From: a virus
Lineage: Duplodnaviria > Heunggongvirae > Uroviricota > Caudoviricetes
Virus record (IMG/VR): IMGVR_UViG_2645727868_000012
Length of the DNA stretch: 14,817 nucleotides
Strand: one strand, 5' to 3'
The position numbers and the translations under genes are program-made. Shown here piece after piece: positions 1 through 12,799 of this stretch. Each line of letters opens with the position of its first letter. The stretch's first letter is position 1. The notes beneath the pieces were generated by a model that saw only the letters and a list, made by a program, of their open reading frames with translations, searched no databases and had not been told where the DNA came from.

Positions 1-1293
<1,293 letters not shown>

Positions 1294-1315
1294 TACCCAA
1301 TTTTTCTGAATCTAA

Positions 1316-1335
1316 AAAGCGCCTGCGGGCGCTTT
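1316..1335 (+). terminator. rho-independent terminator-like hairpin downstream of serS
   Basis: Inverted repeat AAAGCGCC / GGCGCTTT with loop TGCG, 23 bp after the serS stop. Short T run after the stem. Confidence 0.55.
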
Positions 1336-1413
1336 AAGTAGAGGTTTAATCATTTGAAAATAAATGGATTTTATTTTTAAGTGTCCATATAACGTCCATC
1401 TTTGAATGCAAAA

Positions 1414-1449
1414 AGCCCACAGCTTCTATGCTGTGGGCTTTGTTTTTTG
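1414..1449 (+). terminator. strong rho-independent terminator hairpin
   Basis: Perfect 10-bp stem AGCCCACAGC / GCTGTGGGCT, loop TTCTAT, followed by TTGTTTTTT. Preceded by AAAAA, so could act in both directions. Confidence 0.6.
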
Positions 1450-1482
1450 GTGTCCTCATGAGTGAGGGAACCAAAAAGAAAA

Positions 1483-1504
1483 CCCGCAGTTTTTACGCTG
1501 CGGG
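1483..1504 (-). terminator. terminator-like hairpin, minus-strand oriented
   Basis: Stem CCCGCAG / CTGCGGG with 8-nt loop. On the minus strand it is followed by TTTTCTTTTT (complement of 1471-1482). Confidence 0.4.
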
Positions 1505-1930
1505 CTTGTTGTTCACGTCAACTGGAAATAGGGTGCCTTTTCGACCTTTACCCTGGCAACCGATTGACGGGGAAGTTGCCTTCCCCGTCGCGGTTTCCTT
1601 ACTGCTTACACTGTAAGAACGCCGCAAACTCCGCTCCCCAGAAACTCATCCGTATTTCACACAGCGAACCGTGCAGCATCCAGATGATGAGGATTGCCGT
1701 CACGCAGAATGTGATGGCCGTAAGCGATTTTTGCGACATAGCGCTTGCTCCTTTTTCGGGGAGGCGCTAACCTATCACTTGCTGAGGGTAGATGGTTAGG
1801 GCCTCGGGTTAACGTTAAAGTTGACTCGGGGCCTTTCCACATCTGGCCTTCGGGTATTCCCTCCGACCATCAGCCGAAAGGCACCCGCACGTAATCTATC
1901 GCTTTTTTGTTACTCCGGCAATTCTGCCTG

Positions 1931-2191
1931 TTAATTCTGAGATAAAGGCAAACTCATCTGATTGTTTCCCCTGTGTGAAGCTGGCAGATCATGCCACGGG
2001 ATACCTTCTGAAGAGTGAACGCCGGAGGCGTGTTTTGATGTGAATTTATGGAAAGCTTCCAGTGTTGAGAAGCATACGCCGCATTCCAGATTGTTACACT
2101 GGTAATACTTTTGCCGCACGGTGTTTGAATCATTTTCCGGACGACTGGTGCGGATACGGGCAGATGCGCCACAAAGCGGACAACGGAACAT
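1931..2191 (-). CDS. ogr: Ogr/Delta-family zinc-finger late-gene transcription activator homologue (86 aa)
   Basis: ATG at 2191 preceded by AAGGGAGG. Protein MFRCPLCG...YYQCNNLECG shows the C-x2-C-x24-C-x4-C spacing of the P2 Ogr family. C-terminal extension relative to 72-aa P2 Ogr. Confidence 0.8.
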   Translation of the reverse strand: MFRCPLCGASARIRTSRPENDSNTVRQKYYQCNNLECGVCFSTLEAFHKFTSKHASGVHSSEGIPWHDLPASHRGNNQMSLPLSQN

Positions 2192-2231
2192 AGCGACCTC
2201 CCTTAACGTGGTGCTGCCTATTCTAAGTTGC

Positions 2232-3341
2232 TCACTCTGTTTCCGCTATCCATTCCGGGATTTTTGCCTCAAGCTCAAGCTGCGTGGTAAAACCGCTGTT
2301 ATCAATGGTGTGCTCGGCTTTTGCAATGATCCAGTCCTGATTATCAATCTCGCTTTTAAATCCTGTTACCGTGCCATGCATTTCGGGGTAGAGTTCTGCA
2401 CGTCCACGCGCCAGCGTGATGGAGAATGATGCGGCTCCGCGTTGTAGTTGCTGCCACTTTGCCGCCGCTGCGCGTCTTGCTGCCTGCTCGTTCTGATAAG
2501 TCTTGCGTAACACAAACACATTGCCTTCCGCGCCTTCCATATAATCACCTTCGCGGCTGCTGCTTTTCTCCTTTTTGGGTTTTGGCGGTTTACGGCGTTT
2601 CACGCTGACTTTTTTCTTTTTCCCGTAATTAAGATCAAGCCAGTAAGCGCGTACCCCCGTATACGCTTCGCGGTCAGCAATGCGGAACTGATGGCGATCG
2701 CCGCTGCTGCGTGTGATGGCAAACGATGGCAACGGCTGGCCCTGTGCGTTCACGCCACCGCCGGGCATGATGAATAACAGATTACCGCTTTTTACCGTGG
2801 TGATTGCGCCCAGCATTTCCGCCATGCGCGTAAGGAAGGACATGTCGCTTTCTTCGGTCTGGTCGGCGTGGTCGATTTCGATATCCATCAGCATTTCGCT
2901 GATTTGCGGTTTCAGACCATACCGATGAGCGATGGCGGATACCACACGCTCAACGGTCACATCATGCCAGGACACCTCACGTTTAACGTTAAATTCATCC
3001 CGAAAATCTGCGCTTCTGGCTGAAACAGTCAGCCTGTCCGGCGGTCCTTCGTGAGCGATTTCATCAACAATGTAAGTGCCTTTTTCTGTCAGCGGTTCTC
3101 CTTTCCAGCCAATGAGAACCGTCAGGCGCGCGCCCCGTGGCGGTAGCTGCAACTGACCATCCGCATCATCCAGCGTGATGGTGAGCTGGTCCGCCTCAAA
3201 TCCCCGGTTGTCGGTCAGTGACAGGCTCATCAGGCGCTCTGCCACGCCTGACAGCGTTTTACCCTCCGCGAGAATATCAAAATCCGGCATTTTCACGGGG
3301 TCTGTGCCCTGACTGAGCAATTGCATGGTGGTGTCGGTCAT
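2232..3341 (-). CDS. D: P2 gpD-like tail protein (369 aa from ATG at 3341)
   Basis: Track ORF 2232..3473 begins at an upstream non-canonical start. The internal ATG at 3341 (MTDTTMQLLSQG...) has an AGGGAGGGAG Shine-Dalgarno and matches the gpD N-terminus as I recall it. Followed on the same strand by ogr, as in P2. Confidence 0.88.
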   Translation of the reverse strand: MTDTTMQLLSQGTDPVKMPDFDILAEGKTLSGVAERLMSLSLTDNRGFEADQLTITLDDADGQLQLPPRGARLTVLIGWKGEPLTEKGTYIVDEIAHEGPPDRLTVSARSADFRDEFNVKREVSWHDVTVERVVSAIAHRYGLKPQISEMLMDIEIDHADQTEESDMSFLTRMAEMLGAITTVKSGNLLFIMPGGGVNAQGQPLPSFAITRSSGDRHQFRIADREAYTGVRAYWLDLNYGKKKKVSVKRRKPPKPKKEKSSSREGDYMEGAEGNVFVLRKTYQNEQAARRAAAAKWQQLQRGAASFSITLARGRAELYPEMHGTVTGFKSEIDNQDWIIAKAEHTIDNSGFTTQLELEAKIPEWIAETE

Positions 3342-3498
3342 CTGCTCCCTCCCTGTGCGGCATGGTCGCATGTGCGTGCGGAGGGGGTTACTGCTTTTTG
3401 TTGTCGCCGTGGCGGGAGAACGGCGCAGGGGTGAGATTACGCGCGTGGTGGGTGATGATTGTTGCCGAATCATTTAACGGATACAAGGGGCTGAAGCT

Positions 3499-4683
3499 AT
3501 GAGTGAAACTCGTTTTCATGGTGCCCGTGTCACGGAAAGTACCGACCTGGTAACAGCGATTAATGATGTTGATTCCAGCGTTATCGGTATCGTGGCAACG
3601 GCGGATGATGCGGATGCGGAGCTGTTCCCGCTGAACAAGCCCACACTGCTGACCCGCGTCAATGACGTGCTGGGAAAATGCGGGACTACGGGGACGCTTT
3701 ATCGTGCGCTTAAGGCTATCGCAGACCAGGTGAGCACAAAAGTGATCGTCGTTCGCGTGGCTGAACACAAAGAAGAAGGCGGTAGGACGCAGGATCAACT
3801 GGTTATCGGTGGTTCTGAATCTGACGGCAGCTATACGGGGATGTATGCGCTGCTTGTTGCAGAGCAGGATGAAAGCATCGGATACCGTCCGCGTATTCTG
3901 GCCGCGCCGGAGCTGGACACGGAGGCGGTGACAAAATCCCTGTGCGTGATTGCGGGTAAACTGCGCGCGTTTGTGTATGCCACATGTCATGGTTGTAACA
4001 CGATGGCTGAGGCGATTACCTACCGCCAGAAATTCAACGAACGTGAGGTGATGCTCTTATGGCCTGACTTCATCGCCTACAACCCGAAAAGTGGCAAAAA
4101 CGAAACGTTCCCCGCGCCTGCTTATGCGTGCGGCCTTCGTGCGTACATTGACCATGAGCAGGGCTGGCACAAATCGCTGTCCAACGTTCCGGTTAAAAAT
4201 GTGCTGGGGATGTCGAGGCATGTGTTCTGGTCGTTACAGGCCGAAGACAGTGATGCCAACAGCCTCAACAACAAAGAAATCACGACCATTATTCGTCGTA
4301 ACGGGTTCCGCTTCTGGGGCAACCGCACACCGGAAACGAACGCCTACATCTTTGAGGTGTATACCCGAACCGCACAGGTGCTGGCTGATTCAATTGCGGA
4401 AGCGCAGTTTGAAACCATCGACAGTCCACTGACGCCTGCGAACGTGAAGGATGTTATCAGTGCCATCAGGGCAAAATTGGATTCGCTGGTTACTGCCGGG
4501 AAACTGATTGGCGCGGAGTGCTGGTATGACGTGGTGGATAACGGCACCACGGATTTACGTCAGGGGCGTGTGCGTATTCGCTACAAATATACGCCCGTTC
4601 CCCCGCTGGAAGACATGGAGCTTTACCAGACGTTTACTGATGAATTCTTTGGTCCCGCATTTGCGGTGCTGGGAGGTGCCTGA
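3499..4683 (+). CDS. FI: contractile tail sheath protein, P2 gpFI-like (394 aa)
   Basis: Length and sequence character of P2 FI sheath. ATG at 3499 with AAGGGG upstream. Stop overlaps the next start (TGATG). Confidence 0.95.
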   Translation: MSETRFHGARVTESTDLVTAINDVDSSVIGIVATADDADAELFPLNKPTLLTRVNDVLGKCGTTGTLYRALKAIADQVSTKVIVVRVAEHKEEGGRTQDQLVIGGSESDGSYTGMYALLVAEQDESIGYRPRILAAPELDTEAVTKSLCVIAGKLRAFVYATCHGCNTMAEAITYRQKFNEREVMLLWPDFIAYNPKSGKNETFPAPAYACGLRAYIDHEQGWHKSLSNVPVKNVLGMSRHVFWSLQAEDSDANSLNNKEITTIIRRNGFRFWGNRTPETNAYIFEVYTRTAQVLADSIAEAQFETIDSPLTPANVKDVISAIRAKLDSLVTAGKLIGAECWYDVVDNGTTDLRQGRVRIRYKYTPVPPLEDMELYQTFTDEFFGPAFAVLGGA

Positions 4684-5195
4684 TGGCTGTACCAAAACAT
4701 CTTCGCTTTTTTACGTTGTTTGTGGATGGTGAAAACGAAGTGGGTAAAGTGACATCCGTCACGCCGCCCAAACTGACGCGCAAAACCGACAGCTATCGTG
4801 GTGGTGGCATGATGGGAGCAGTAAGTATTGATCTCGGTCTGGACGACTCCGCGCTTGATGCGAGCTTTGTCATGGGGGGAGCTGTTCGTGCACTGTTCCT
4901 TAAGTATGGCGGCACGATTGACGGCACGCTGCTGCGTTTTGCGGGTGAATATTACACCGATGCAGAAAGCGATCTGTATGAAATCGAGATGCGCGGGCGT
5001 GTGACGGAAATTGATATGGGGGAGGCCAAACAGGGCGAAGCCACATCACACACTTACGCTGTCAAAAACACCTACTACAAGCTGAGCGTTAACGATCGCC
5101 CGCTGTGGGAAATCGACCTGTTGAACCACATCTACCGGAAGGACGGCAAGGACATTGTGCCTGACCGCATTCGTTCCGCGCTTGGGCTTGGCTGA
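4683..5195 (+). CDS. FII: tail tube protein, P2 gpFII-like (170 aa)
   Basis: GGGAGG 6 nt upstream of ATG 4683. Translational coupling with FI. Size and sequence as for P2 FII. Confidence 0.95.
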   Translation: MAVPKHLRFFTLFVDGENEVGKVTSVTPPKLTRKTDSYRGGGMMGAVSIDLGLDDSALDASFVMGGAVRALFLKYGGTIDGTLLRFAGEYYTDAESDLYEIEMRGRVTEIDMGEAKQGEATSHTYAVKNTYYKLSVNDRPLWEIDLLNHIYRKDGKDIVPDRIRSALGLG

Positions 5196-5250
5196 TAAGT
5201 AATATGCAGGCGGCGCAGTGCGTCGCCTCTGACTGAAAAGGAGACAACTG

Positions 5251-5625
5251 ATGAAAGATATCGATACTGAAACCCGGAATAACACCGTAGCGGATGATGT
5301 GACGTCAGGTGAGGATATGGCTGTCGAACGTGGTGTAAAACTTTCCCGGCCAATTGAGCGTGGTGCCGAAAAAATCACATATGTGGAGATCACCGGGGCT
5401 ATTGAGCAGGCGGGATCCCTGCGTGGTCTGTCGCTGTCTGATGTGCTGAATCTGAAAGCGGATACCATGTTCACGCTGTTGCCTCGCGTGACCTCGCCAC
5501 GACTGGATGAAGTGATGATTAAAAAAATGTCGTCACGCGATTTTATTCAGTTGTGCGCTGTGGCTGTAAATTTTATGAGCGAGCCAGACTCTGGCGCGAA
5601 GAGCGTGCAGGAGACGGCAGCGTAA
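5251..5625 (+). CDS. E: tail assembly chaperone, P2 gpE-like (124 aa)
   Basis: AAGGAG 8 nt upstream of ATG 5251. Position between tube and tape-measure genes. A -1 frame ORF overlaps its 3' end. Confidence 0.85.
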   Translation: MKDIDTETRNNTVADDVTSGEDMAVERGVKLSRPIERGAEKITYVEITGAIEQAGSLRGLSLSDVLNLKADTMFTLLPRVTSPRLDEVMIKKMSSRDFIQLCAVAVNFMSEPDSGAKSVQETAA

Positions 5626-5789
5626 TCACCCTGGTGTGCTTTGAGCACATCGAAGATCTGGTGGCGGATATTGCCGCCATTTTCAACTGGTCGCCCGCCG
5701 AAATCTTCATGATGACGCCCGGCGAAGTGGTTAGCTGGCGTGAGCGGGCGGCACTTCGCAGCGGGAATGCAGATAATGAAGACTCTTGA
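5251..5789 (+). CDS. E+E' fusion product predicted from programmed -1 ribosomal frameshift (about 179 aa if the slip is at 5568-5574)
   Basis: The -1 frame is open from 5523 to TGA 5787-5789 and overlaps the E 3' end. Candidate slippery heptamer A_AAT_TTT at 5568-5574 in the E frame. Analogous to P2 E/E+E' and lambda G/GT. Confidence 0.6.
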
Positions 5790-8583
5790 CATCCGGGTCG
5801 CTTTCAGCGCCGTTGACAGGCTGACCCGGCCTGCCGAAAACGCCCGCCGCCTGATGGGGCAGTTTGGTGACTCCATTCAGCGAACGCAGGGGGCGATCAA
5901 AAATCTCGAGCGTCAGGCGCGTTCATTTGAGCGCGCCCGCGACGCTGTCAGTAAAGCGGATGCGGGTATCGTGAAAGCACGACGCCAGCTTAACGCCCTT
6001 AATCAGTTACAACGCACGGGTACAGTGCTCAGCGAAAAACAACAAAAGCTGATGCAGCAGTTAAGCACCCGGCTTGAACGCCTGAATGAATCGCGCACAC
6101 GGGAAATTCAGAAAATGCGGGAGCTTGGCGGAGAACTGAAACGCCACGGCATTTCCCTGACAGGCAGCGATAACACCATCCAGCAGGCCATCAGACGCAC
6201 CGAACAATACAACAACCAGCTTGAACGCGAACGGCAGGCGCTTGCGCGTGTAACGCAGGCTCGTGAGCGGTATTCGCGCGCGCAGGAAACCGCGGGAAAA
6301 CTGAAAACAGGTGGTGCGCTGGCAATTGGTGCGGCAGCGGCGGGCGGCTATGCTGCCGGGCGTTTTTTGCAGCCCGCGATCGGGTTCGGCAAAGAGATGT
6401 CCCGCGTTCAGGCGCTGACGCGAATCGACAAAAACAGCCCGCAGTTTAAGGCGCTGCGTGAGCAGGCGTTAAAACTTGGCTCTGAAACACAGTTTACTGC
6501 GAGTGATGCCGCCAGTGGGCAGAGCTTTCTGGCAATGGCTGGTTTTACTCCGCAGGCCATTCAGGCCGCATTGCCCGGTGTTCTTAATATGGCGCTGGCA
6601 GGTGGCGTCGAACTCGGCGAGACGGCTGATATAGGCTCCAATATCCTCACACAGTTCAACCTGACAGCCGATCAAATGGACCGGGTTGGCGATACGCTGA
6701 CAGCGGCATTCACCCGGACCAATACTGATTTACGCGCGCTGGGCGAAACCATGAAGTATACCGGTCCGGTTGCCGCAAAACTTGGTATCAGTCTTGAAGA
6801 AGCGGCAGCCATGGCCGGGATGCTTGCCAATAATGGTCTTCGTGGAAGCGATGCTGGTACGGCCATGCGCGCAAGTCTGTCCCGCCTTGCATCACCGCCA
6901 AAAGCTGCGGCTGATGCGCTGAAAGAGCTGGGGGTGTCAGTTGCTGACGCCAGAGGCAAAATGCGCCCGATGGAGGATGTGCTGCTTGATCTCTATAAGG
7001 CGACACAAAAATACGGACAGGTGGACCAGGTTTCCTTCTTCAAGGACATCGCCGGAGAAGAGGCGTTCGTTGGTTTGCAGACGCTTGTTGCGGCGGCTGG
7101 TTCAGGAGAGCTGCAAAAACTGACCAGAGAATTGCAGGGGGCAAGGGGAGAGGCCGATCGCGTTGCAAAAGTAATGGCCGATAATCTTGATGGGGACCTG
7201 AAAAATCTCGACAGCGCATGGGAAGGTCTTCGTATTCGCATCAGTGATCTGGTTGACGGTCCGCTGCGTTCTGTCACGCAGTGGCTCACGCGGGTGCTTG
7301 AAAAAATCACCTCGCTGGCGCAGGCCCATCCGGTACTGACGCGCCAGCTACTGATAGCAGGCGGTGCGTTGCTGGCAATGACTGCAACGGTTGGCTCGTT
7401 GTCGCTGGCTATTGGTGTGCTTGCTGGCCCGCTGGCAAAACTGCGTCTTGGCTTTTCCCTCCTGACCGGTTCAATGAATGCTGTCAGACTCCTGCCAGCA
7501 CTATGGGGAATGGTGACGGGTTCCGTTTCGTTACTGGGGGGCGCTATCGGGGCGTTGTTCAGTCCGGTCGGCCTTATCGTGGCTGCGCTTGCCGGAGCTG
7601 CCGTTCTCATCTGGAAATACTGGGATCCCATCAGGGCATTTTTTGCCGGGGTGTTCAGCGGGATTATGGAAAGGCTGACCCCGTTGCGCGAAACCTTTGA
7701 ACGGTTTGGTCCTGTTTTTGACGCAATCGGGAGTGGGATCAGCCAGGTGTTTAACTGGTTTAAATCGCTGCTGTCTCCGATGGAGTCCAGCAAGGAAACT
7801 CTGGATAAATGTACCAGTGCTGGCGAGATATTCGGTAACGTTCTTGGCGGTGCGTTACAACTTGTTCTGACACCTGCAAAAATGTTGCTGGATACGCTGG
7901 CGTGGATACTTGAAAAGCTTGGTGTGCTTCCGGATGAAGCGGAAAGGGCGCGCAAGAAAATCGAAGACGCACAGCGTGCGGCCATTCTTCAGGACAAGGT
8001 TGCCTTGCTTCAGGGGGACCTGGCGAAAATCAATCCGCCGAAGCCTGTGGAAAATGGCAATGGCACCGGAGGTGATAACCCCAAAGACAATAAACCGCTC
8101 ACAGACAGCAATACCGGTACGCTGCGCAGACTCAGCAAAATTGCTGATAACACAGGTAAGCTGGTTGAGGAGACGAAAAAACGCATTGGCCCCGGCGATA
8201 TTGTCTTTAAAAACCTGCCCCGAGCACTTGCTGTTCGTGGGGAGTGGCAGGAGCGGAAGATTGCGCAGGTCAGTAAGCCTGCCCCCGCAATTAATATCAC
8301 ACCCGTGGTCCCGGCTCCGCTGCCTCCGGCGCTGGTCCCTGTTGTTGCGGCCAGCTCCCGCCCGGTGGCGGAGGCTATACGATCTCCAGTGGCATCAGTT
8401 CCTGTAACTTCCCGTAACCGGGAGCCTGTTGCCTCCGGATTTGGTGGTGAAATTCATGTTCATCTGCATAACGTTGTTACGCAGAATCCCCGCGAACTGG
8501 CGAAACTGGTCGGTGAAATGGTCAGGGCAGAAATGGAACGGCGCGCCCGTGCCGGGCGTGGCAGTTTTTACGATAAAGATTGA
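5767..8583 (+). CDS. T: tail tape measure protein, P2 gpT-like (about 938 aa)
   Basis: Long ORF after E/E' with coiled-coil-rich N-terminal half, hydrophobic central stretches and Pro/Ala-rich C-terminal region. Track start 5740 is GTG; first ATG is 5767 (alternative 5776). Start uncertain, overlaps the E' end. Confidence 0.9.
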   Translation: MQIMKTLDIRVAFSAVDRLTRPAENARRLMGQFGDSIQRTQGAIKNLERQARSFERARDAVSKADAGIVKARRQLNALNQLQRTGTVLSEKQQKLMQQLSTRLERLNESRTREIQKMRELGGELKRHGISLTGSDNTIQQAIRRTEQYNNQLERERQALARVTQARERYSRAQETAGKLKTGGALAIGAAAAGGYAAGRFLQPAIGFGKEMSRVQALTRIDKNSPQFKALREQALKLGSETQFTASDAASGQSFLAMAGFTPQAIQAALPGVLNMALAGGVELGETADIGSNILTQFNLTADQMDRVGDTLTAAFTRTNTDLRALGETMKYTGPVAAKLGISLEEAAAMAGMLANNGLRGSDAGTAMRASLSRLASPPKAAADALKELGVSVADARGKMRPMEDVLLDLYKATQKYGQVDQVSFFKDIAGEEAFVGLQTLVAAAGSGELQKLTRELQGARGEADRVAKVMADNLDGDLKNLDSAWEGLRIRISDLVDGPLRSVTQWLTRVLEKITSLAQAHPVLTRQLLIAGGALLAMTATVGSLSLAIGVLAGPLAKLRLGFSLLTGSMNAVRLLPALWGMVTGSVSLLGGAIGALFSPVGLIVAALAGAAVLIWKYWDPIRAFFAGVFSGIMERLTPLRETFERFGPVFDAIGSGISQVFNWFKSLLSPMESSKETLDKCTSAGEIFGNVLGGALQLVLTPAKMLLDTLAWILEKLGVLPDEAERARKKIEDAQRAAILQDKVALLQGDLAKINPPKPVENGNGTGGDNPKDNKPLTDSNTGTLRRLSKIADNTGKLVEETKKRIGPGDIVFKNLPRALAVRGEWQERKIAQVSKPAPAINITPVVPAPLPPALVPVVAASSRPVAEAIRSPVASVPVTSRNREPVASGFGGEIHVHLHNVVTQNPRELAKLVGEMVRAEMERRARAGRGSFYDKD

Positions 8584-8595
8584 GGAGTCATGGCC

Positions 8596-9084
8596 ATGAT
8601 GATGATCTACGGCATGTTTGTTTTTGAGCTGCGCACGCTGCCGCATCAGCAGTTACAGCAAAACAAAAGCTGGCGGCATGTGAAAAATGAACGCGTTAAC
8701 CGTTCAGCAAGCTGGCAGTATATCGGTGCAGGTGATGATCGCATCGTTCTTTCTGGTGTGCTTTATCCTGAAATTACAGGTGGCGAAGTGTCGCTGTCGC
8801 TGCTGACCACGCAGGCGTATACAGGACGACCCTGGCCTTTGATTGATGGCGTCGGGCAGATTTACGGCATGTATGTCCTGACTGAAACGAATACGACCCG
8901 CTCCGAGTTTGATCGCTACGGTAAGGCGAAAAAGATAGAATTTTCACTGACTCTTGAACGCTGTGATGAGGATTTGCGGGAGCGCCTGCAATCCTCATCG
9001 TTCAGTGATATGCTGTCCGGCTTCAAAGATAAGGTGACATCATCTCTTAACAGCGCGGCCAGTTCAGTTAAAGGGCTGTTCTGA
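8596..9084 (+). CDS. U: tail protein, P2 gpU-like (about 162 aa)
   Basis: GAGGAG at 8582-8587. ATG 8590 is only 2 nt from it, so ATG 8596 (MMMIYGMF...) is the more likely start. Sequence character of P2 gpU. Confidence 0.9.
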   Translation: MMMIYGMFVFELRTLPHQQLQQNKSWRHVKNERVNRSASWQYIGAGDDRIVLSGVLYPEITGGEVSLSLLTTQAYTGRPWPLIDGVGQIYGMYVLTETNTTRSEFDRYGKAKKIEFSLTLERCDEDLRERLQSSSFSDMLSGFKDKVTSSLNSAASSVKGLF

Positions 9085-9093
9085 TTTAACACA

Positions 9094-9123
9094 AAAACCG
9101 CTAATGGTCAGATTAGCGGTTTT
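9094..9123. terminator. bidirectional terminator hairpin between convergent U and invertase genes
   Basis: Perfect stem AAAACCGCTAAT / ATTAGCGGTTTT with loop GGTCAG. T-rich on both sides. The 3' arm overlaps the invertase stop codon. Confidence 0.6.
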
Positions 9124-9712
9124 CATTTTCCTGAGTCTGCCCGGTTGTTTCTTCAGTCTGTATATCGCCTACAGGGTGATAACGATAAATCGTCGATGTG
9201 CCAATGCCGTAAATTATTGCCAGTTGTTTTCTGTCGTGCCCGTTTTTGATTAGCCTTGCTATTTGCTCATGCTGTTCTTTTGTCAGCTTCGGTCGACGTC
9301 CGCCTGTGCGCCCCCTTGCGCGCGCTGCCGCCAGCCCGGCCAGTGTACGTTCAACAATTAATTCACGTTCCATTTCAGCCAGGGCACCCATCACGTGGAA
9401 GAAAAAACGCCCCATTGGAGAAGATGTGTCTATGCTGTCGGTCAGACTGCGAAAATTAATCCCTCGCTCCCGTAGTTCCCCGACGAGAGAAATCAGATGT
9501 TTCATGCTTCGCCCGAGGCGATCCAGTTTCCAGACAACCAGCGTGTCACCTTTTTGAAGGCGCTTTAAAGCGCGTTTTAATCCCGGTCGGTCTGTCTTTG
9601 TCCCGCTTAATTTATCTTCAAATATTTGTTCACATCCTGCACAAACAAGAGCGTTTCGTTGCAGGTCTGTATTCTGGTCATTTGTTGATACCCTTACATA
9701 GCCAATCAGCAC
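9113..9712 (-). CDS. pin: site-specific DNA invertase, serine recombinase of the Pin/Gin/Cin/Hin family (199 aa from GTG 9712)
   Basis: Protein ...LIGYVRVSTNDQNTDLQRNAL...LVVWKLDRLGRS... has the catalytic Ser motif and C-terminal helix-turn-helix region typical of Gin-family invertases. Track start 9730 is TTG; GTG 9712 has a GGGAGA Shine-Dalgarno 6 nt upstream. Lies beside the crossover site. Confidence 0.93.
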   Translation of the reverse strand: MLIGYVRVSTNDQNTDLQRNALVCAGCEQIFEDKLSGTKTDRPGLKRALKRLQKGDTLVVWKLDRLGRSMKHLISLVGELRERGINFRSLTDSIDTSSPMGRFFFHVMGALAEMERELIVERTLAGLAAARARGRTGGRRPKLTKEQHEQIARLIKNGHDRKQLAIIYGIGTSTIYRYHPVGDIQTEETTGQTQENENR

Positions 9713-9766
9713 ACTGAATCTCCCGTCCAAAAGCGCAAATCATGCCATGCAGGCCAGAAACGGCCA

Positions 9767-9792
9767 TTATTTAAAACCTCGGTTTACGAGAA
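9767..9792. promoter_or_regulatory. left crossover site (gix/pix-type), 26 bp
   Basis: TTATTTAAAACC TC GGTTTACGAGAA: two 12-bp half-sites around a central dinucleotide. Matches the Gin gix sequence as I recall it at about 22 of 26 positions. Coincides exactly with the outer boundary of the inverted repeat. Confidence 0.8.
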
Positions 9793-10488
9793 CTCGGCAC
9801 AAGCGGGGAGAAAATACCGTTACTCAGTACAGCGAATACCTGGACCAATCGACAAACATTCAGCGGTGGCCTTTCTGGGGAACTGTCCGGCAATGCCGCT
9901 ACTGCAACAAAGCTGAAAACAGCACGAAAAATTGCTGGAGTTGGTTTTGATGGTTCTAGCGATATTTCAATTAGTGCCAAAAATGTCAATGCATTTGCAC
10001 TCCGACAAACAGGTAATACTGTTAATGGTGATACATCCGTTGGATGGAATTGGGATAGTGGTGCATATAACGCCATGATTGGTGGTGCATCTGCATTAAT
10101 TCTTCACTTTAATATAAATGCTGGTAGCTGTCCTGCCGTACAATTCCGTGTGAATTATAAAAATGGTGGCATTTCCTACAGGTCGGCTCGTGATGGTTAT
10201 GGGTTTGAATTAGGTTGGTCAGATTTCTATACCACGACACGAAAACCTTCAGCGGGAGATGTTGGTGCATATACGCGGACAGAATGTAACTCAAGGTTTA
10301 TTACAGGTATTCGCCTTGGCGGTCTGTCATCTGTTCAGACATGGAATGGTCCCGGCTGGTCTGACAGGTCAGGTTATGTCGTTACGGGTTCAGTTAACGG
10401 AAACCGTGATGAATTAATTGATACAACACAGGCAAGGCCAATTCAGTATTGCATTAATGGGACGTGGTATAACGCGGGGAGTATTTAA
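9775..10488 (+). CDS. tail-fibre C-terminal variable cassette (Sv-like), open frame without start codon; about 237 codons
   Basis: Frame is open from just after TAA 9772-9774 to TAA 10486-10488. First in-frame ATG is 10075 (the track ORF). Ends with the ...INGTWYNAGSI motif shared with the opposite cassette. Confidence 0.75.
   Translation, partial: NLGLRELGTSGEKIPLLSTANTWTNRQTFSGGLSGELSGNAATATKLKTARKIAGVGFDGSSDISISAKNVNAFALRQTGNTVNGDTSVGWNWDSGAYNAMIGGASALILHFNINAGSCPAVQFRVNYKNGGISYRSARDGYGFELGWSDFYTTTRKPSAGDVGAYTRTECNSRFITGIRLGGLSSVQTWNGPGWSDRSGYVVTGSVNGNRDELIDTTQARPIQYCINGTWYNAGSI
9777..9891. repeat. left arm of the inverted repeat (about 115 bp, 3 mismatches to right arm)
   Basis: Direct comparison of 9777-9891 with the reverse complement of 12416-12530. 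Encodes the shared fibre segment [40 protein letters not shown]. Confidence 0.85.
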
Positions 10489-10490
10489 CG

Positions 10491-11024
10491 ATGATGCACT
10501 TAAAAAACATTACTGCTGGCAACCCTAAAACAAAAGAGCAATACCAGCTAACAAAGCAATTTAACATCAAATGGCTTTATTCAGCTGATGGAAAAAACTG
10601 GTATGAGGAACAAAAGAATTTCCAGCCAGACACTTTGAAAATGGTCTATGACCATAACGGCGTTATTATTTGTATTGAAAAGGATGTTTCAGCAATTAAT
10701 CCGGAAGGCGCAAGCGTCGTTGAATTACCTGATATTACAGCAAATCGCCGGGCTGATATTTCGGGGAAATGGATGTTCAAAGATGGCGTAGTGGTAAAGC
10801 GAACTTATACCGAGGAAGAGCAGAGGCAACAAGCGGAAAATGAAAAGCAGAGCCTGTTGCAACTTGTCAGGGATAAAACTCAGCTATGGGACTCACAGCT
10901 ACGGCTGGGCATCATTTCCGACGAGAATAAACAAAAATTAACCGAGTGGATGCTCTATGCGCAGAAAGTCGAATCCACAGACACCTCCAGCCTGCCAGTA
11001 ACATTTCCCGAACAACCTGAATGA
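10491..11024 (+). CDS. tfa: tail fibre assembly protein (Tfa / Mu U-like), 177 aa
   Basis: ATG 2 nt after the cassette stop. About 175 aa MMHLKNI... protein with the conserved Tfa N-terminus. Paralogous to the minus-strand copy. Confidence 0.9.
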   Translation: MMHLKNITAGNPKTKEQYQLTKQFNIKWLYSADGKNWYEEQKNFQPDTLKMVYDHNGVIICIEKDVSAINPEGASVVELPDITANRRADISGKWMFKDGVVVKRTYTEEEQRQQAENEKQSLLQLVRDKTQLWDSQLRLGIISDENKQKLTEWMLYAQKVESTDTSSLPVTFPEQPE

Positions 11025-11027
11025 GAC

Positions 11028-11057
11028 AAGGCCCGATAACGGGCCTTAATTTTTATT
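11028..11057. terminator. bidirectional terminator between the convergent tfa genes
   Basis: Stem AAGGCCCG / CGGGCCTT, loop ATAA, followed by AATTTTTATT. Confidence 0.65.
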
Positions 11058-11580
11058 CAGGCTTTTGTGGCCATTCAGGATTTGCCGTATCCACACGGTT
11101 GACCAGAACACTGTAGCGTTCCCATGCTTCCAGTCGTGTGCGTTCCTCGTCTGTTGCCATATTCAGCCTGACAGCGCGTTCCAGCGGCTGGATGACTGAT
11201 TCAGCTTCGGAAAGCAATGCGGCCTTTTGTGATTCGGCCTGTTGTTGCTGTTCGTCAGCCGTATAAATCCGTTTAACCACAGCTCCGTCCTTAAACATCC
11301 ACTTACCGGAATCATCGGTCCGACGATTGGCCGTTATATCGGGAACCTCGACGACGCTAAAACCTTCGGGATTAAGCGTGGAGGCATCTCTGGTGATGGC
11401 GACAATAATATTATTTTCATCGTAAACAATCTTTATGGTGTCTGGCTGAAAGTTTTTCACTTCCTCATACCAGTTTTTTCCGTCCTCAGAGTAAAGCCAG
11501 ATAACTCCGTGTTTCTTTGTTAACTCATACTGTTCCAGTGTTTTAGCATTACCCGCTTTTATGTTCTTTAAGTGCATCAT
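11053..11580 (-). CDS. tfa: tail fibre assembly protein (Tfa' / Mu U'-like), 175 aa
   Basis: ATG at 11580 one nt after the upstream cassette stop. Same family as 10491..11024, with a divergent C-terminal half. Confidence 0.9.
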
Positions 11581-11581
11581 A

Positions 11582-12574
11582 TTAAACGCTCGCTACATTA
11601 TACCAGGTGCCATTTATATACTTTTGAACGGGTCTGTAATAAACACCCGCTATATTATCGGCAGAGTTAGACCCTGTATCCTGAACATTAATACCAGACA
11701 ATACATGACCTGAAGGGCACTGGAAATTCCATGTTCGCCAGTTGTTCACTCCATAATATTGCTGTGAACCAAGTCGAACATCTTTCACATAACGGGAATC
11801 AAAGTTACCGTAATCCGAGGGATTAACACGCCCCGTAATATTTATGGTCTTATTACTTTGAATGCTTCCGGGAACAAAGCGCATAACATGGACGTAATTA
11901 GCATAAACATCCAGATTACCATCGCCATTTTGTTTAAAGCCCGTGTCATTATCACCCAATACAATCGAATTACCGCCAAGAGCACTGGATGTTCCGATAC
12001 CCAGTGCACCATTCAGTTGACCACCAGATAACGGCAGTGCACCAACATCTCCTGCTGAAGGTTTTCTGGTGGTGGTGTAAAATTCGGACCAGTCGGCTTC
12101 AAAACCATAACCATCACGGGCTGAACGATAAAAAATACCGCCATTTTTATAATTAATCCGAAACTGAGCTGCAGGACAACTTCCGTCTCCCATATAAAAA
12201 TGAATAATTAACGTTGATGCACCACCAATATTTGCGTTATAGGCTCCGCTACTCCAGTTCCATCCAACTGCTTTATCATTCGCAACGGTGCTTCCTGTTT
12301 TCCCTAAGGCAAACGCACCAACATGACTTGCTTTTAATGTGATATCGGAGGAACCATCAAAAGCCACATTGCTTATTTTCCTGGCAGTTTTTAATTTTGC
12401 AGCTGTAGAAGCATTGCCGGATAGTTCACCAGAAAGGCCACCGCTGAATGTTTGTCGATTAGTCCAGGTATTCGCTGTACTGAGTAACGGTATTTTCTCC
12501 CCGCTTGTGCCGAGTTCTCGTAAACCGAGGTCGCTCTTGTTTGTGCAGGATATGAACAAATATTTGAAGATAAA
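11582..12574 (-). CDS. tail-fibre C-terminal variable cassette (Sv'-like), open frame without ATG; about 330 codons
   Basis: Minus-strand frame open from just after the stop at 12575-12577 (plus coordinates) to the stop at 11582-11584. Only a TTG at 12559, just outside the crossover site. Shares the scaffold with the left cassette, then has a longer, different tip. Confidence 0.75.
12416..12530. repeat. right arm of the inverted repeat
   Basis: Reverse complement matches 9777-9891 with 3 mismatches. Lower identity continues further into the cassettes. Confidence 0.85.
12515..12540. promoter_or_regulatory. right crossover site, hybrid: canonical inner half and centre, non-canonical outer half
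   Basis: TTCTCGTAAACC GA GGTCGCTCTTGT. The inner half and centre are identical to the left site. The outer half is invertase coding sequence, not a gix half-site. Confidence 0.6.
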
Positions 12575-12664
12575 TTAAGCGGAACAAGGACAGGCCGACC
12601 TGGATTAAAACGTGCTTTAAAGCGCCTTCAAAAAGGTGACGCACTGGTTGTCTGAAAACTGGAC
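12530..12664 (+). pseudogene. 5' fragment of a second Pin-family invertase gene (about codons 21-60), frameshifted and truncated
   Basis: Translation [41 protein letters not shown] then a frameshift. About 90% nucleotide identity to the corresponding part of the intact invertase gene. Homology stops near 12664. Confidence 0.8.
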
Positions 12665-12799
12665 TGACTGGTTCACTGTATGCGGCATCTTGTCGTGCTG
12701 GTGGTGGAAGCCTAGAAAAAGTATCGGGTGTTACTGAACCGTGTTGATACATCAACTGCACCTGATATTGAGTGGCCTACGAACCCTGTCAGGGAGTAA
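12665..12799 (+). pseudogene. 3' remnant of a tail-fibre-assembly-like gene (in-frame TAG, indel)
   Basis: Translates to ...[32 protein letters not shown], matching the C-terminus of ORF 13579..13848 with an in-frame stop. No start codon. Confidence 0.6.

Follow-up and report, generated by a model that had tools for sequence, protein, structure and literature searches.

Gene content of the tail module and its prophage context

The window, as the whole 14,817-nt stretch of DNA analysed here is called, carries a P2-like (Peduoviridae) contractile-tail late module in which homologues of FI, FII, E/E', T, U, D and the Ogr/Delta activator are all found (Table 1). Assignments from Pfam, PHROGs and tblastn against P2 are concordant: the eight gene products, namely Ogr and the seven encoded by the P2 F operon (FI, FII, E, E', T, U, D), are all homologous to those of P2, with 33-48% amino acid identity. 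They confirm the initial annotation in placing ogr and D on the minus strand and FI-FII-E/E'-T-U on the plus strand, in measuring exactly 157 bp (positions 3342-3498) for the divergent gap between D and FI, and in locating a Gin-like invertase module downstream of U. No Rfam match occurs anywhere in the window.

The ogr product shares 36% identity with P2 Ogr and 99% with an unannotated ORF of phage P88 (tblastn), while the D product shares 48% with P2 gpD and 97% with P88 gp51. D starts at the ATG at 3341, with GGGAGGGAG just before it; the longer ORF that reaches 3473 merely extends it upstream. A slippery A AAT TTT at 5568-5574, after which the -1 frame is open to 5789 and matches GpE-family phrog_1756, predicts an E+E' frameshift. 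Both this site and the position of ogr directly downstream of D are common to P2 and the window. The invertase gene is 93-97% identical in nucleotides to Mu/D108 gin over part of its length, and the hairpin between it and U is terminator-like and could be used in both directions.

Table 1 Features of the late tail module, with positions in the window
Feature	Position	Strand	Basis or remark
ogr, late-gene activator, Ogr/Delta zinc finger, 86 aa	1931-2191	-	Pfam PF04606 Ogr_Delta, 5e-14; CX2CX24CX4C
-10-like TAGAAT in the 40-bp D-ogr spacer	2220-2225	-	read from sequence
D, tail/baseplate hub, 369 aa	2232-3341	-	Pfam Phage_GPD; phrog_52, 2e-166
Predicted P_D -10 hexamer GACCAT	3362-3367	-	predicted TSS ~3355
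Alternating purine-pyrimidine (CG/TG) tract between dyad and P_D -10	3369-3380		G34/G36/G38/G40 nearly invariant in alignment A2
Putative Ogr-type activator dyad GTTGT-N12-AGAAC	3400-3421		one-mismatch search; core TGT-N12-AGA 3402-3419, centre 3410.5
Predicted P_F -10 hexamer GATGAT	3454-3459	+	predicted TSS ~3466
FI, tail sheath	3499-4683	+	Pfam sheath domains; phrog_23; 46% identity to P2 FI
FII, tail tube	4683-5195	+	Pfam Phage_tube, 2e-45
E	5251-5625	+	phrog_103 + phrog_1756 (E plus E'); E+E' via -1 frame to 5789
T, tape measure	5776-8583	+	Pfam PhageMin_Tail, 1.6e-56; PGAP start as in strain 4/1-1
U, tail protein	8590/8596-9084	+	Pfam Phage_P2_GpU, 5.5e-39
Hairpin, 12-bp stem, between convergent U and invertase genes	9094-9123		terminator scan
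Gin/Hin-family DNA invertase (Gin-like)	9113-9712	-	Pfam Resolvase+HTH_7

Escherichia phage P88 (Xuanwuvirus P88, NC_026014) has the same genes in the same order and on the same relative strands: U, T, E, FII and FI read one way on one side of a 157-bp gap and D reads the other way on its far side, with the invertase and hok/gef neighbours also shared. P88 and P88-like prophages are 93-96% identical to the window in nucleotides over ~8.3 kb. The Xuanwuvirus-type match is colinear at 93.1% identity to P88 over 8334 nt of the ~11 kb of prophage inside the window. Strain 4/1-1 carries the identical prophage in what appears to be complete form. Unlike the window, the P88 RefSeq record leaves ogr unannotated, and the window copy has a suspicious joint at 12531/12532, beyond which the sequence comes from a different (lambdoid) prophage. 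We consider it quite probable that the window contains, from a P2-family prophage of P88-like (Xuanwuvirus-type) kind, the right end, with integration beside serS, jointly with the ancient inversion and the bidirectional promoter described below.

Distribution and origin of the inverted FI-U layout

The FI-U block is inverted relative to P2, as had been proposed. The P2/186-type (Peduovirus) order, with everything from FI to ogr on one strand, is absent here: D and ogr lie on the strand opposite FI-U, and D no longer closes the F operon. This layout is ordinary, long conserved and already known in a large group of P2-like phages comprising P88, SEN4/5 and their relatives. Nothing is said of the inversion in the papers on P88, SEN4/5 and C. 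rodentium phiSM. Phage isolates from three genera of Peduoviridae have the layout natively: Xuanwuvirus P88, Senquatrovirus SEN5 and a Reginaelenavirus. Klebsiella phage Kp4871-3 is among the phages with this native order. In Salmonella SEN4/5 and the Klebsiella Reginaelenavirus phages, FI-U is inverted in the same way with D-ogr divergent, D is 63-70% identical to that of the window, and SEN5 has no invertase next to U. A survey of 80 prophage loci from distinct species recovers the inverted order in 48 of them, across ~20 Enterobacterales genera, and at least 80% of positions 1300-9800 is colinear in 1107 of 5426 complete E. coli genomes (~20%).

The initial annotation had read the order, which is unlike that of P2 and 186, as equivalent to an inversion or to a mosaic joining of two phage lineages; the event would then be recent and peculiar to this genome. 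The presence of the same layout in P88, SEN5, Kp4871-3, the surveyed loci of many genera and the E. coli genomes, that is, in P2-family references with D-ogr natively divergent from FI, contradicts such a local anomaly, a reading already refuted and now exceedingly improbable. The D protein follows the layout: its identity to the D of the window is 61-99% in all 48 inverted-order loci and at most 53% in all P2-order loci. Across the surveyed loci, D identity co-varies with that of FI (rho 0.89) and U (rho 0.83), and the co-divergence of the three genes likewise opposes a rearrangement confined to this genome. The joint at 12531/12532 could raise the suspicion that the inversion is an assembly artefact; it lies elsewhere in the window, however, and a finished chromosome, like many others, matches positions 1-12531 with 100% identity, so that this explanation, too, had already been refuted and retains next to no likelihood.

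The invertase gene abuts U, and gix-like sites are present in the window at ~9767-9792 and 12514-12531, which would fit a programmed invertible FI-U segment flipped by the neighbouring enzyme. Against this, the sites belonging to the enzyme bracket the tail-fibre segment, which lies on the other side of the invertase gene, and neither an inverted repeat beyond chance nor a gix-like site is found in a comparison of 3342-3498 with 9085-9112. The longest exact match in that search, which had been suggested to reveal repeats at the inversion breakpoints, is 7 nt, a length reached by 60% of shuffles. All 48 inverted-order loci show a single orientation, and most lack an invertase. A switch of this kind is thus extremely unlikely, and the invertase is part of the tail-fibre inversion module, not of the FI-U block.

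The outgroups, Pseudomonas phage Dobby and a Mannheimia phage, retain the P2 order. Together with the co-divergence of D, FI and U, this argues for one ancient inversion rather than a flip of recent date, a mosaic junction or switching by the invertase. The FI-FII-E/E'-T-U block would have inverted once, long ago, for the whole lineage and together with its late promoter. Breakpoints between the tail-fibre/invertase module and gene D would have left FI divergent from D-ogr across ~150 bp. In keeping with a derived layout, there are loci of canonical order that read from the invertase through FI to U and then D (L052, L069 and L083).

A conserved dyad and predicted promoters between D and FI

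Late promoters dependent on Ogr, Delta or B have a dyad, TGT-N12-ACA, centred near -55 and require both the activator and the RNA polymerase alpha subunit. The initial annotation reported no such dyad in 3342-3498. The exact pattern is indeed absent from this gap, but the statement misleads: a conserved dyad with one base changed lies there, its half-site being AGA, which differs from P2 and from the consensus ACA. The exact-pattern test is undiagnostic, since none of the Ogr sites annotated in P2 matches the pattern exactly. The window dyad is orthologous to a perfect TGT-N12-ACA in relatives, SEN4/5 and the Reginaelenavirus phages having the perfect ACA half-site, and its T.T/A.A columns are invariant (alignment A2). 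A single TGT-N12-A(C/G)A occupies a fixed place in 44 of the 48 inverted-layout gaps; the simple pattern is missing from the other four, two of which (Providencia) have GTTCT-N12-AGAAC. The GTTGT-N12-AGAAC box recurs in the gap between the divergent P and O genes, both in this prophage and in P88. A third copy, antisense inside T at 7840-7861, lacks -10-like hexamers at +/-46 and probably arose by chance.

Ogr/Delta/B-dependent late promoters combine a poor -35 with a -10 element that stands ~46 bp away from the middle of the dyad, and this arrangement is found in the gap. On the FI side, the predicted P_F hexamer keeps its offset of 46 in 100% of regions, and the dyad, the G at the -35 position and A2/A5/T6 of the -10 are invariant in alignment A2 against a mean column identity of 50%. 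On the D side, the share of the 44 distinct regions that have a hexamer with A2 and T6 centred at 46 bp from the middle of the dyad is 91%, a percentage that, like the others of the survey, overstates independent support since the sequences are phylogenetically related. Hexamers resembling a -10 occur at any other offset in at most 20% of regions, and in canonical-order phages the equivalent far-side hexamer stands at 46 bp in only 7%. Leader lengths differ by 8-14 bp whereas the spacing from dyad to -10 is constant. The FI ATG follows the dyad at a distance of ~82-88 bp in both phages (88.5 bp in the window and 82.5 bp in P2 pF). A generic sigma-70 scan returns no site in the gap and a total count at chance level; a blank gap is expected for activator-dependent promoters.

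The same geometry is known from the mapped pP/pO pair of P2, with one central dyad, hexamers at +/-46 and TSSs annotated at 55.5 bp from the middle of the dyad; the window matches it, and both gaps measure ~150-170 bp. In P2 the pair controls the P-Q and O-N-M capsid operons from mapped starts, whereas the starts in the window are predicted and face D-ogr and FI-U. PMC3931495 describes the consensus of P2 late promoters and, in phage Smp131, a dyad common to PP'/PO'. The papers searched contain no description of P_D/P_F, which would be the clade's second shared-dyad bidirectional late promoter.

From this comparison we infer that the gap is a shared-dyad bidirectional late promoter, P_D/P_F, including Ogr binding, both starts and the Ogr dependence of P_D. 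One Ogr-type dyad would serve two start sites that face outward, each ~55 bp downstream of it, in an architecture that copies pP/pO. P_F would drive FI to U, stopping at the hairpin, and P_D would drive D and then ogr by read-through. The view that D needs a promoter of its own in 3342-3498 is thereby favoured on comparative grounds. P_D does not appear to be P_F duplicated in inverted form: no palindrome spans the region as a whole, and the symmetry is limited to the dyad and the -10 positions.

The dyad might instead serve P_F alone, with D-ogr transcribed from an Ogr-independent promoter that is early, constitutive or governed by another factor. Ogr has to be made before Ogr-dependent promoters fire, and the alternating tract on the D side, which could belong to another regulator, has no counterpart in the P2 consensus. 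The separate TAGAAT ahead of ogr is possibly ogr's own promoter, P2 having an annotated ogr promoter in the equivalent D-ogr spacer. The shared-dyad model is weakened by GACCAT, which is weak as a -10, by the lack of any recognisable -35 for P_D and by the departure of the window dyad from the consensus. The missing -35, however, also speaks against independence from the activator, as do the exact mirroring of P2 pP/pO and the rigid 46-bp distance maintained in diverged regions despite leader indels. Ogr-independent transcription of D-ogr is accordingly judged unlikely, and a P_D that shares the dyad with P_F is preferred. As to how the shared promoter arose, we lean towards a sequence of events in which the inversion put the symmetric Ogr site of P_F beside D and a second outward promoter then evolved on its far side.

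Implications for annotation and late control

Every phage of P88, SEN4 or Reginaelenavirus type has the inverted order. For this clade, the P2 order is unfit as a test of completeness or rearrangement, and exact TGT-N12-ACA searches overlook real sites, those of P2 included. The value for annotation and for P2 biology is modest. In conclusion, if the proposed arrangement is true, D-ogr is uncoupled from the sheath-tube operon while both remain under Ogr control, and ogr is placed in a positive-feedback transcript. The gap between D and FI would then be a clean natural example of a symmetric activator site co-opted for a second, divergent promoter after an inversion.

Gene order in the window and its relatives

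After serS, the window covers the right-hand end of a prophage of the P2 family. The gene calls, with D starting at its ATG, agree with the coordinates and gap size of the initial annotation. By tblastn, all seven tail and regulatory proteins share 33-48% identity with their P2 counterparts and are true homologues. The homologue of Ogr, the late-gene activator, has 86 aa and the cysteine spacing CX2CX24CX4C, compared with 72 aa and a reported CX2CX22CX4C in P2. A hok/gef toxin gene sits between ogr and the serS-side prophage end, and no Sok-type antisense RNA is found for it by Rfam at the gathering threshold.

Features of the window
Feature	Coordinates	Strand	Remark
serS	1-1293		window start; Pfam
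hok/gef toxin gene, MokW-like	1599-1739	-	phrog_251
ogr	1931-2191	-	
D	2232-3341	-	ATG at 3341, preceded by GGGAGGGAG
D-FI divergent gap	3342-3498		157 bp
FI	3499-4683	+	
FII	4683-5195	+	
E	5251-5625	+	-1 frame extension E' to 5789
T	5776-8583	+	
U	to 9084	+	
Hairpin	9094-9123		3' of U
Gin-like invertase	9113-9712	-	convergent with U; has tail-fibre inversion module
Fibre-tip/assembly gene set 1	9778-11024	+	
Fibre-tip/assembly gene set 2	11053-12531	-	
Second invertase fragment, truncated	12532-12709		

In P2, FI to U, D and ogr follow one another on a single strand (canonical order), so the FI-U block is correctly described as inverted relative to P2. The order is unusual only in that comparison, and the earlier reading fails by its own test, a P2-family reference genome with D-ogr natively divergent from FI. 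Over 8.5 kb, the window is colinear at 93-96% nucleotide identity with the isolated Xuanwuvirus phages P88, P884B11 and 500465-2 and Citrobacter Shae_phiSM. The P88 RefSeq record runs from a forward invertase through reversed U, T, E', E, FII and FI to a forward D, with a gap likewise of 157 bp. The isolated phages SEN5 (Salmonella, Senquatrovirus) and Kp4871-3 (Klebsiella, Reginaelenavirus) share the inverted order. At least 80% of 1300-9800 occupies one colinear place in 1107 of 5426 complete E. coli genomes, and strain 4/1-1 matches the window at 100% identity up to position 12531.

A D-protein alignment scan, limited to one genome per species, yielded 80 loci typed by tblastn. The inverted order occurs in 48 of them, with the FI start ~130-195 bp upstream of D, in Salmonella, Edwardsiella, Serratia, Erwinia, Enterobacter, Pantoea, Kosakonia, Citrobacter, Pectobacterium, Brenneria, Klebsiella, Xenorhabdus, Photorhabdus, Providencia, Hafnia, Yersinia, Morganella and other hosts. 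Identity to the window D separates the two orders cleanly (inverted 61-99%, canonical <=53%). The window order is that of a large known clade, where it is ordinary and already present in deposited sequences. Public annotation of these loci is inconsistent: in strain 4/1-1, PGAP shortens D to 266 aa and introduces a pseudo-ORF (L002 20933-21786), ogr is unannotated in RefSeq P88 (L001 34476-34733), and the SEN5 "ogr" label lies on a minus-strand ORF, the homologue being on the plus strand (L085 10141-10374).

History of the inversion and the joint at 12531/12532

The P2 order is kept by two Peduoviridae outgroups, Pseudomonas phage Dobby and Mannheimia phiMhaA1, which makes the inverted order the derived one. 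In some canonical loci (L052, L069, L083) the invertase lies directly upstream of FI, and turning FI-U around there reproduces the window order exactly. Within the inverted class, D identity tracks that of FI (rho 0.89) and U (rho 0.83); block and flanks therefore diverged together, which argues for a single old event and against a mosaic junction of two lineages, one of the readings first proposed. The short inverted repeats suggested as breakpoint marks do not survive at the block boundaries. An invertase-driven switch of FI-U is refuted, since the block points the same way in all 48 inverted loci, most of which have no invertase; the survey likewise refutes a recent inversion, a mosaic joint and an assembly artefact as the cause of the order.

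In the tail-fibre inversion module, gix-like crossover sites (9767-9792 and 12514-12531) and a 157-nt inverted repeat of 90% identity (9776-9932 / 12375-12531) flank two alternative fibre-tip and assembly gene sets. Up to 12531 the window matches the serS-adjacent P88-like prophage, and from 12532 the right end of a lambdoid prophage adjoining the trp operon, both at 100% identity. The joint lies 3 nt beyond the centre of a gix-like site, immediately after TTCTCGTAAACCGAGGT, and lacks 122 bp of the trp-locus copy, among them the right half-site and 59 nt from the start of a truncated invertase. A 40-mer spanning it occurs in 0 of 5426 complete E. coli genomes. Strain 4/1-1 carries the two prophage loci ~530 kb from each other in direct orientation; were the joint real, it would imply a large deletion. 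Either the assembly is wrong at this point or the rearrangement is an unusual one.

The divergent gap between D and FI

The gap indeed contains no exact TGT-N12-ACA, as first reported, but a dyad, GTTGT-N12-AGAAC, is present at 3400-3421 (centre 3410.5). The annotated P2 Ogr sites likewise lack the exact pattern and read GTTGT-N12-CCA. The GTTGT-N12-AGAAC motif recurs between the diverging P and O genes, both in this prophage and in P88. A third exact copy (7840-7861, minus strand), antisense in the tape-measure gene and shared with P88, lacks -10-like hexamers at +/-46 and is probably a chance match. A single TGT-N12-A(C/G)A occupies a fixed place in 44 of 48 related gaps; the dyad is perfect, with ACA, in hosts that include Kosakonia, Klebsiella, Xenorhabdus, Photorhabdus and Hafnia. 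Two Providencia gaps (L032, L040) carry no TGT/ACA and have a perfectly symmetric GTTCT-N12-AGAAC instead; the window site is a TGT/AGA hybrid. These sites point tentatively to half-sites that vary, perhaps in step with the Ogr protein.

When 27 diverse gaps are aligned, with mean column identity at 50%, no variation is seen in T.T and A.A of the dyad, in a G at -35 of P_F, the predicted late promoter toward FI-U, or in A2/A5/T6 of a -10 hexamer. Among 44 distinct gaps, an A2+T6 hexamer lies exactly 46 bp from the dyad centre in 100% toward FI and in 91% toward D, all other offsets reaching <=20%; in 14 canonical-order control phages, the FI side reaches 93% and the far side only 7%. The geometry is that of the divergent P2 pP/pO (annotated starts 3016 and 3127), whose TAGCCT and GAAACT hexamers lie at +/-46 and whose starts lie at +/-55.5. 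Leader length differs between relatives (66.5-80.5 bp from dyad to D ATG, 80.5-88.5 bp to FI ATG), yet dyad to -10 spacing is constant. PMC3931495 describes the P2 late-promoter consensus and, as a precedent, a dyad shared by PP'/PO' in Smp131.

From the +/-46 hexamers, the likeness to pP/pO and the fixed spacing, the gap is predicted to be a shared-dyad bidirectional late promoter. P_F would use the -10 GATGAT (3454-3459) and start at ~3466; P_D, directed toward D-ogr, would use GACCAT (3367-3362) and start at ~3355. Ogr binding, both start sites and the Ogr dependence of P_D are inferences. On the D side of the dyad, an alternating CG/TG tract (3369-3380, CATGTGCGTGCG; CACGCGCGCGCG in relatives) hardly varies within the clade and is unaccounted for by a simple promoter model. 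The main live alternative, in which this tract belongs to another regulator and P_D is Ogr-independent, is considered rather unlikely.

The proposal that D requires its own promoter is supported: read-through is implausible because the invertase, 5.7 kb off and followed by the hairpin, is the only gene upstream of D on the minus strand. The ogr gene, 40 bp behind D, would be co-transcribed with it, and a -10-like TAGAAT belonging to ogr lies at 2225-2220. A second shared-dyad divergent late promoter is undescribed in the papers covered by the literature search. In conclusion, the sole new element is the comparative case for such a promoter.
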